A DNA stretch of 55,813 nucleotides, from the IMG/VR virus record IMGVR_UViG_3300042691_025398, positions 1 through 55,813 of that record. One strand, 5' to 3'. Below the pieces are notes generated by a model. The model did not search any database. It saw only the letters and a program-made list of their open reading frames with translations, and was not told where the DNA came from. A program made the translations under genes and the position numbers. The stretch comes from a virus. Its lineage: Duplodnaviria; Heunggongvirae; Uroviricota; Caudoviricetes. This document shows positions 22,408 to 23,465 of the stretch, piece after piece; position 1 is the first letter of the stretch, and each line of letters begins with the position of its first letter.

Positions 22408-23250
22408 ATGACCCAAATCGCAAATCCTTTAAGGCAATTCTTTCGTCAACCTGCAATTTATCTACGCTTGCCCAGCGACGGACGCTACTGGCCACAAGAC
22501 ACTCTGGTCATGCCAGAAAATCGCGAACTACCTGTGATGCCCATGACGGCCGTGGACGAAATCACTTACCGCACTCCAGATGCCTTGTTCAACGGACAGG
22601 CTGTGGTCAGCGTGATACAGAGTTGTATACCAAATATTCGCAACGCCTGGGCTGTACCTTCAGTGGACATAGATGCTATTCTCACTGCTATAAGAATTGC
22701 CAGTTACGGACATGATCTTGAAATTGACACACGCTGCCCAGGATGCCAAGAGTCCGATACATATACCTTGGATCTTAGACATGTGCTTGATGGATTTAAA
22801 TTGCCTGACTATGACGCATGCGTTAATCACGGTGATCTAGAAATACACTTTGTGCCATTGAATTATCATCAGTTACATGAAGTAAACACCATGCAGTTCA
22901 ATGAACAAAAACTGTTACAGATGCTGCCTTCTGAAGAATTACCTGAAGAACAAAAAGTCAAAATGCTTGCGGATGCGTTACGCAAGGTCACTGAGATGAC
23001 TATACTAACACTTACAACCACGATCAGCGCAATCAAGACTCCCGCGGCCATTGTGACCGAAAGAGAGCACATTGCGGACTTTTTGAAAAATTGCGATCGA
23101 GCACTGTTTAATTTGATACGTGATCATGTGGTCAAACTGCGCACCGACGGTGAATTAAAACCTTTACAAATCAAATGCACACACTGTAACACTGAATACA
23201 GTCAGCCGTTCACGCTTGATCAAGCAAGTTTTTTCGCGCCAGCCTCTTAA
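22408..23250 (+). CDS. gp26: Baseplate hub assembly protein, T4 gp26-like (280 aa)
   Basis: NPLRQFFRQPAIYLRLPSDG, PMTAVDEI, DIDAILTAIRIASYG and CPGC/CTHC zinc-finger-like pairs; C-terminal SFF. Confidence 0.8.
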   Translation: MTQIANPLRQFFRQPAIYLRLPSDGRYWPQDTLVMPENRELPVMPMTAVDEITYRTPDALFNGQAVVSVIQSCIPNIRNAWAVPSVDIDAILTAIRIASYGHDLEIDTRCPGCQESDTYTLDLRHVLDGFKLPDYDACVNHGDLEIHFVPLNYHQLHEVNTMQFNEQKLLQMLPSEELPEEQKVKMLADALRKVTEMTILTLTTTISAIKTPAAIVTEREHIADFLKNCDRALFNLIRDHVVKLRTDGELKPLQIKCTHCNTEYSQPFTLDQASFFAPAS

Positions 23251-23276
23251 CATCTAGCCCAGATGAAATTGAGGCA

Positions 23277-23465
23277 ATGATCACCACCATGGGCAAAGAA
23301 GCTGCTGCCATCCGGCATGAAGCTTTGAAACTCAGTTGGTACATGCGGGGCGGAGTAACATACGAACAAGCACTGCAACTCAGCTATGAAGAACGCATGG
23401 CAATCAATGACATCATCAAAGACAACCTAGAAACCACTAAAAAATCTGGATTACCTTTCTTCTAA
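23277..23465 (+). CDS. gp51: Baseplate hub assembly catalyst, gp51-like; possibly translated as a -1 frameshift extension of gp26
   Basis: LSWYMRGGVTYEQALQLSYEER motif; reading frame open back to 23220 across a T_TTT_TTC site. Confidence 0.7.
   Translation: MITTMGKEAAAIRHEALKLSWYMRGGVTYEQALQLSYEERMAINDIIKDNLETTKKSGLPFF

Follow-up and report, generated by a model that had tools for sequence, protein, structure and literature searches.

Comparative sequence analysis points to a -1 frameshift linking a gp26-like gene to a gp51-tail-like extension in an uncultured freshwater jumbo myophage

The window analysed here, a 55,813-nt stretch of viral DNA, carries a gene similar to gene 26 of phage T4 and, running past its end in the -1 frame, a short open reading frame; the question raised by this locus is whether the two are separate genes or a single gene with two products. 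The preliminary description had claimed that a -1 frameshift links them. The comparative evidence supports this claim strongly, as it comprises a conserved heptamer, an open frame, a downstream ORF lacking a conserved start and a downstream helix, and we consider it very probable from the sequences compared that the gp26-like gene yields a short and a long protein by means of a -1 ribosomal slip at T_TTT_TTC. The elements of the locus, in window coordinates, are:

22408..23250, + strand: gp26-like ORF, short (zero-frame) form, 280 aa (PF12322, phrog_150)
23229..23235, + strand: slippery heptamer T_TTT_TTC in X_XXY_YYZ phase, its last two codons encoding the Phe-Phe pair that is invariant in the family
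23236..23241, + strand: spacer GCGCCA, 6 nt, from heptamer to hairpin
23242..23275, + strand: candidate stimulatory hairpin, outer stem GCCUC/GAGGC and inner stem CAUCU/AGAUG
23248-23250, + strand: zero-frame stop TAA, 4 codons past the heptamer
23235..23465, + strand: -1 extension of 76 codons plus TAA, a gp51-tail-like C-terminal domain holding a 62-aa ORF (23277-23465)

The IMG/VR virus record from which the window is taken has 192 kb and an estimated completeness of 55%; relatives of the window from freshwater metagenomes lie on contigs of up to 344 kb. A blastn comparison of positions 21500-25000 with cultured phages gave no match, and relatives among the latter were found at the protein level only. 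All of these are jumbo myophages, namely Atu_ph07, Phosso, Serratia BF, the Rak2-like phages, PA5oct, XacN1 and SCTP-2. Upstream of the gp26-like locus lie two genes of the opposite strand:

18091..19833, - strand: portal protein gene (phrog_213, E 1e-108), used as a synteny marker
19850..22360, - strand: divergent neighbour encoding 836 aa with an SLT/transglycosylase domain (PF01464, phrog_4067), a candidate tape-measure or tail-lysin gene

The order of portal gene, large structural protein gene and divergent gp26-like gene is also found in Phosso, Serratia BF and PA5oct, and the genes downstream of the gp26-like locus are unrelated small ORFs. The preliminary description had placed a tape-measure-like gene next to the gp26-like one. 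The neighbour does adjoin it and has an SLT domain, and its counterpart is annotated as a structural protein in the relatives and was detected by mass spectrometry in PA5oct; it is transcribed divergently, however, and does not lie downstream as in lambda. The PF01464 and phrog_4067 matches are confined to residues 570-720 of the 836-aa protein, and a single pairwise BLASTP comparison with T4 gp29 returned weak, low-complexity-like matches (E 0.003) that we did not count as evidence. The neighbour is a reasonable candidate for a tape-measure or tail-lysin protein.

The full open frame of the gp26-like gene spans 22381-23250 on the + strand, with alternative in-frame ATG codons at 22381 and 22396. 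The ATG at 22408 is most likely the start, this being the one used by most homologues; most of the 4397 homologues are 280 aa long. The protein matches the Pfam family PF12322 (T4_baseplate) with 45 bits against a curated cut-off of 24.5, a match likewise found on the DNA of the window's own IMG/VR record, and it also matches PHROG 150, annotated as baseplate hub. Four cysteines (C110, C113, C257 and C260) are nearly invariant in the gp26 family, T4 gp26 included, and F275-F276 is invariant in the same set, being the only pair of residues that is fully invariant in the family. An AlphaFold2 model of the short form was obtained with a pLDDT of 93.9 and a pTM of 0.89, and its best matches among the predicted viral structures of BFVD were T4-like baseplate hub assembly proteins. 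Among the T4 proteins listed as hub assembly chaperones are gp26 and gp51, the latter being needed for baseplate assembly and missing from the finished particle (PMC3004832). By sequence and by analogy, we infer that the gp26-like gene of this uncultured freshwater jumbo myophage is a tail/baseplate-hub assembly chaperone gene.

The gene ends with CAA GCA AGT TTT TTC GCG CCA GCC TCT TAA, so that the in-phase T_TTT_TTC reported at first inspection is indeed present at 23229-23235. Aligning the junctions across relatives had been proposed as a check, and this alignment showed both the T-rich heptamer and the -1 phase to be conserved. The loci compared were 95 in number (14 from IMG/VR, 80 metagenomic and the window itself); T_TTT_TTC occurs in 94 of them and C_TTT_TTC in the remaining one. 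At the equivalent site all 12 cultured jumbo phages examined (Atu_ph07, Phosso, Serratia BF, PA5oct, Muenster, 121Q, GAP32, XacN1, Xoo-sp13, SCTP-2, Munch and RAS14) have T_TTT_TTC or T_TTT_TTT, their proteins being 24-32% identical to that of the window. The zero-frame stop follows the heptamer after 1-4 codons among the 95 loci, and after 1-11 codons when all relatives are considered.

How much of this conservation is owed to the protein? Since the Phe-Phe pair is invariant even in T4, part of the conservation of the T run reflects a protein constraint. The residue before the pair is variable (S, N, A, R or H), and its codon nearly always ends in T; across the 95 loci this codon is AGT, AAT, GCT, TCT or CGT, and AGC once. 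Among the 26 FF dipeptides encoded by the window's genes, T_TTT_TTC is the configuration in just two, which is chance level. Set against its presence in 94 of 95 loci and in the 12 cultured phages, this figure places the heptamer above chance. Moreover, the run of six T is identical, without any indel, in independently assembled contigs from two other studies, and it is therefore not a homopolymer assembly error. Codons of the UUY type and all-pyrimidine heptamers are known to be frameshift-prone in E. coli (PMC4066793).

Several variants of the site were observed. The exceptional locus, from a metagenomic relative (L038:1365-1371), reads AGC TTT TTC and has its extension and hairpin intact; its C_TTT_TTC may be a site of lower strength, or else it may stem from strain variation or from sequencing. 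The Xanthomonas/Stenotrophomonas jumbo phages XacN1 (L023), Xoo-sp13 (L025) and RAS14 (L028) carry T_TTT_TTT, a run of seven T, together with a longer zero-frame tail of 10-11 codons and an extension of 79-80 aa. Elsewhere in the window, a second in-phase T_TTT_TTC (CAT TTT TTC) lies at 34724-34730 on the + strand, 165 codons ahead of the end of its gene. There the -1 frame is open for just 31 codons, and this heptamer is probably a chance occurrence.

In the -1 frame a TGA at 23217-19 is followed by an open stretch that starts at 23220 and ends with the TAA at 23463-65. A fusion begun at ATG 22408 would have 276 + 76 = 352 aa, and both the open frame from 23220 and the fusion of about 352 aa put forward in the preliminary description are borne out by the ORF coordinates. 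The predicted junction peptide of the long form would read ...DQASFF-R, followed by ASLLTSSPDEIEAM. The extension is uninterrupted in all 92 relatives in which it is complete, its length being 76 codons in 87 of them and 77 in the other five, and it has 70-80 codons in the 12 cultured jumbo phages. Conservation of its peptide sets in with the first shifted codon (R-x-R-L-L ... WYMRGG ... ER ... ETTKKSGLPFF), and across the 92 loci its substitutions follow the pattern of a coding region under what resembles purifying selection. AlphaFold2 models it as a helical hairpin with a pLDDT of 89. Taken alone, the extension had no match in Pfam, PHROGs or NCBIfam.

Signals for initiation within the extension are poorly kept. 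Depending on the relative, codon 6, 14, 18 or 36 is its first in-frame ATG, a correctly spaced Shine-Dalgarno-like motif precedes such an ATG in just 5 of 80 sequences, and neither a start codon nor a Shine-Dalgarno sequence was conserved among the relatives compared. In the window a GAGG lies 2 nt ahead of ATG 23277 and 14 nt ahead of ATG 23289, the poor spacing that had been pointed out before. As for the public records, those of PA5oct and Muenster in GenBank contain no annotated downstream ORF on the strand of the extension, and in that of Atu_ph07 the annotated ORF begins in the middle of the WYMRGG motif.

The relation of the two predicted products to the T4 proteins was clarified by T4 gp51, whose residues 1-201 match PF12322 (E 4e-52) and which ends in a C-terminal tail of 48 aa. 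A profile of the 92 conceptual fusions aligned with the gp51 family, positions 63-365 against 31-257, with 94% probability and an E value of 1e-7, and a profile of the extension aligned with the C-terminus of the same family with an E value of 2e-4. At the junction, F-F/R-x-L-L-x-x-P-D/E-E-I is matched with F-K-L-L-V-N-P-D-E-I of gp51. When hhalign was run with the single T4 gp51 sequence the matches were weak (E 0.07 and 0.02), so that family profiles were required. As the fusion profile aligns end to end with gp51, T4 gp51 corresponds to the fused long form; homology between the sequences indicates that the short form is the counterpart of T4 gp26 and the long form that of T4 gp51. The downstream ORF had been called gp51-like in the preliminary description, and the label proved apt, gp51 being PF12322 plus a 48-aa tail and the fusion profile being colinear with it. 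The opposite position, which took the divergent T4 gene 51 and its 249-aa product as grounds against the label, was considered and was overturned by the PF12322 match of gp51 and the fusion-profile alignment.

A short and a long protein with a common body are thus supplied in T4 as well as in the window phage, by different means. Whereas the window phage and its jumbo relatives have one gene and a -1 signal, T4 has two divergently transcribed genes and no slippery site, as had been suspected when the locus was first described. T4 gene 26 ends with GAG TTC TTT GAG TTA CTA TAA and is immediately followed by gene 25; its Phe-Phe pair is encoded by TTC TTT, which are non-slippery codons. The C-terminal extension has 76 aa in the window phage compared with 48 aa in T4 gp51. 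In agreement with these arrangements, two PF12322 genes are present in T4 and one in each of four complete jumbo genomes, those of PA5oct, 121Q, Atu_ph07 and an uncultured phage (344 kb). If the frameshift provides the counterpart of gp51, genomes should have either a single gene with a slip site or a pair of genes lacking one, and this is what was observed in the genomes compared.

Two additional observations concern these T4 proteins. The T4 record (L005:3803-4090) annotates a gene 26', the product of an internal start comprising the C-terminal 95 aa of gp26, which is yet another T4 isoform of the gp26 family, made by a different route. In precomputed annotations, the T4 gp51 homologues carry the newer Pfam family PF28602 beside PF12322; this family is presumably the C-terminal tail of gp51.

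Downstream of the heptamer, the spacer of 6 nt and the stem-loop claimed previously were recovered where they had been placed, the stem-loop being the minimum-energy fold. Its outer arms are GCCTC (23242-46) and GAGGC (23271-75), and its inner arms CATCT (23251-55) and AGATG (23261-65). The folding energy is -12.6 kcal/mol (z = -2.0; 10 of 200 shuffles fold equally well), and the stability of the window's own hairpin is therefore modest. The relatives provide further information on this element. Among 89 sequences, the distance from the heptamer to the first helix of at least 5 bp is exactly 6 nt in 50, and it is 4-8 nt in 78%, against 27% in a control in which the downstream sequence was shuffled. 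Compensatory changes are also found: the inner stem of one relative (L011) is CUUCU/AGAAG, and in the outer helix C:G alternates with U:A and G:C with A:U at offsets 11 and 13-15.

Within the clade of the window the 5' arm GCCUC(C) is invariant, and its GAGGC partner is located at +42, +69 or +90 past the heptamer according to the subclade, +42 being the position in the window and in L006, L011 and L081. This is a partner switching of a long-range helix within the coding region. The helix arms of Atu_ph07, GGCUCUUUG/CAAAGAGCC, are unrelated in sequence to those of the window and have the same architecture, which is also shared by Phosso and PA5oct despite their unrelated sequences. XacN1 and Xoo-sp13 have a stem of 11 bp located 6 nt past the heptamer; the Rak2-like enterobacterial phages show a less distinct helix in this region. 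With regard to codon usage, the GAGGC 3' arm (loci L036-L115) always encodes Glu-Ala as GAG GCN; about half of the other Glu-Ala sites use GAA.

From these features we infer the occurrence of slippage, its frequency and its ribosomal mechanism, and the following course of events is proposed. Most ribosomes would read AGU UUU UUC in frame and terminate four codons later, giving the short form of 280 aa. A minority would pause at the hairpin 6 nt downstream with two tRNA-Phe on UUU and UUC; both tRNAs would then re-pair one base back, from U_UUU_UUC to UUU_UUU, and translation would go on in the -1 frame for 76 codons, producing a long form of 352 aa with a helical hairpin as its C-terminal domain.

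Could the downstream ORF instead be a separate small gene, with its own initiation or with re-initiation after the gp26 stop, the T run being merely the codons of the Phe-Phe pair? Public records of several relatives do annotate ORFs of 40-76 aa apart from the gp26-like gene, the window has ATG codons at 23277 and 23289 near a GAGG, and the Phe-Phe pair is kept as protein even in T4. However, the position of the first ATG drifts among relatives, Shine-Dalgarno-like motifs are restricted to the 5 of 80 sequences mentioned above, and the GAGG forms part of the hairpin, as its 3' arm. The peptide (R-x-R-L-L...) is conserved right from the shift point, ahead of every possible start codon, and no protein constraint explains why the codon before the pair keeps its third base or why TTT always precedes TTC. 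T4 gp51, furthermore, shows this tail naturally fused to a gp26-type body. Taken together, these data make a separate gene very unlikely. An idle heptamer, next to a -1 ORF that is a relic or a frame open by chance with no long form made, could draw on the apparently fortuitous second T_TTT_TTC at 34724; however, the extension is kept at 76-77 codons in 92 loci, is present in all 12 cultured relatives, has a confident AlphaFold2 fold and is homologous to the gp51 tail, and we regard this reading as extremely improbable.

A different route to the same long protein is transcriptional slippage, in which the RNA polymerase would add one U within the run of six T. The site is a homopolymer, extended to seven T in the Xanthomonas/Stenotrophomonas phages, and a single inserted U would lead to an identical product. 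Nevertheless, polymerase slippage is usually efficient only on runs of about 8-9 T or longer, compared with which six T are few, and a conserved helix 6 nt downstream is a hallmark of ribosomal -1 frameshifting. The related T-run site of the P2 genes E/E+E' is also said to operate in translation, the frameshift on this T run having reportedly been described as translational by Christie et al. in 2002. We therefore give transcriptional slippage little credence, and the ribosomal -1 slip is favoured because the conserved helix sits at a fixed distance downstream.

The arrangement invites a comparison with known frameshift systems. A conserved -1 frameshift in tail assembly chaperone genes was reportedly recognized by Xu, Hendrix and Duda in 2004, with gpG/gpGT of lambda as the example. 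As in lambda G/GT, the window phage would shift in the -1 direction at an X_XXY_YYZ heptamer a few codons short of where the upstream frame terminates. The predicted products are again a short form in abundance and, more rarely, a form lengthened at its C-terminus, and the gene adjoins that of a large tail protein. The heptamer is U_UUU_UUC in the window phage and G_GGA_AAG in lambda. Lambda has its gene between those for the tube and the tape measure; that of the window phage lies elsewhere, beside the portal gene and divergent from the tape-measure-like gene. No match to a lambda-type or other chaperone family was found in Pfam, PHROGs or NCBIfam. A structural comparison with tail assembly chaperones had also been suggested, and it gave no informative match among PDB structures: PDB sequence searches, Foldseek against the PDB and VIA-align wide returned generic helical-hairpin matches only, and no solved relative. 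Consequently, of the lambda G/GT-like signal originally claimed, the logic stands, in its anatomy and its conservation, and similarity of sequence or fold was not detected. By analogy, the pair may act as G/GT does in lambda, chaperoning the tape-measure and hub proteins during the initiation of the tail; it would then bind the tape-measure protein and, by way of the tail of the long form, the tube protein.

Phage P2, like the window phage, is a myovirus with a -1 shift site late in the short ORF, on a T-rich slippery run. The P2 protein family, in contrast, is unrelated by sequence, and the P2 genes precede the tape-measure gene within the tail operon. The E. coli dnaX gene has a -1 signal of the bacterial type, in which a hairpin follows the heptamer at a distance of about 6 nt, as it does in the window phage. 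The heptamer of dnaX is A_AAA_AAG, and dnaX uses an upstream Shine-Dalgarno-like stimulator as well.

The principle of this frameshift appears to have been published. According to papers citing it, the work of Vladimirov, Gautam and Davidson (Virology 2022;566:9; PMID 34826709) apparently identified gp26/gp51 as the tail assembly chaperones of T4-like phages, poly-T slip sites included. One citing paper adds that, per the same work (PMID 34826709), some T4-like phages do without frameshifting and encode the chaperone in two genes, one short and the other long and fused. In the literature searched, where this Virology article was represented by its citing papers, we found no report of a gp26-like frameshift in a jumbo phage, and the frameshift is annotated in none of 12 GenBank records of jumbo phages. 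Because the principle appears to be in print, as far as the citing papers convey it, the present locus opens no new kind of biology; the details of the stimulatory helix and the complementarity of gene copies may be additions to published knowledge.

In terms of annotation, the short ORF past gp26-like genes, currently an orphan hypothetical or intergenic sequence, should be treated as the putative -1 extension of the chaperone, a change that touches Rak2-like, PA5oct-like and Atu_ph07-like phages and many uncultured jumbo phages. More generally, the locus lends support to the idea that both chaperone forms, short and long, are indispensable to all long-tailed phages, and suggests two routes to this pair within one protein family, namely a frameshift or a duplicated, fused gene. 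The cultured relatives also offer a natural and deeply conserved U_UUU_UUC-plus-hairpin signal for study. It is conceivable, although we hold it with somewhat less than even confidence as a joint proposal, that the single-gene frameshift is ancestral in the T4 superfamily, genes 26 and 51 having arisen by a later duplication that hard-wired the fusion, and that the shifts of the GCCUC partner may tune the ratio of short to long form.

Finally, the extension ends in a TAA (23463-65) whose last A is also the first base of the ATG that opens the next gene (23465-23959); the two codons form TAATG at 23463-23467 of the window, and no obvious Shine-Dalgarno sequence was seen ahead of the ATG at 23465. 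The zero-frame stop lies 215 nt upstream of this overlap. Since ribosomes that terminate in the zero frame would do so at that distance, any reinitiation coupling to the downstream module of three genes would be expected from frameshifted ribosomes only.
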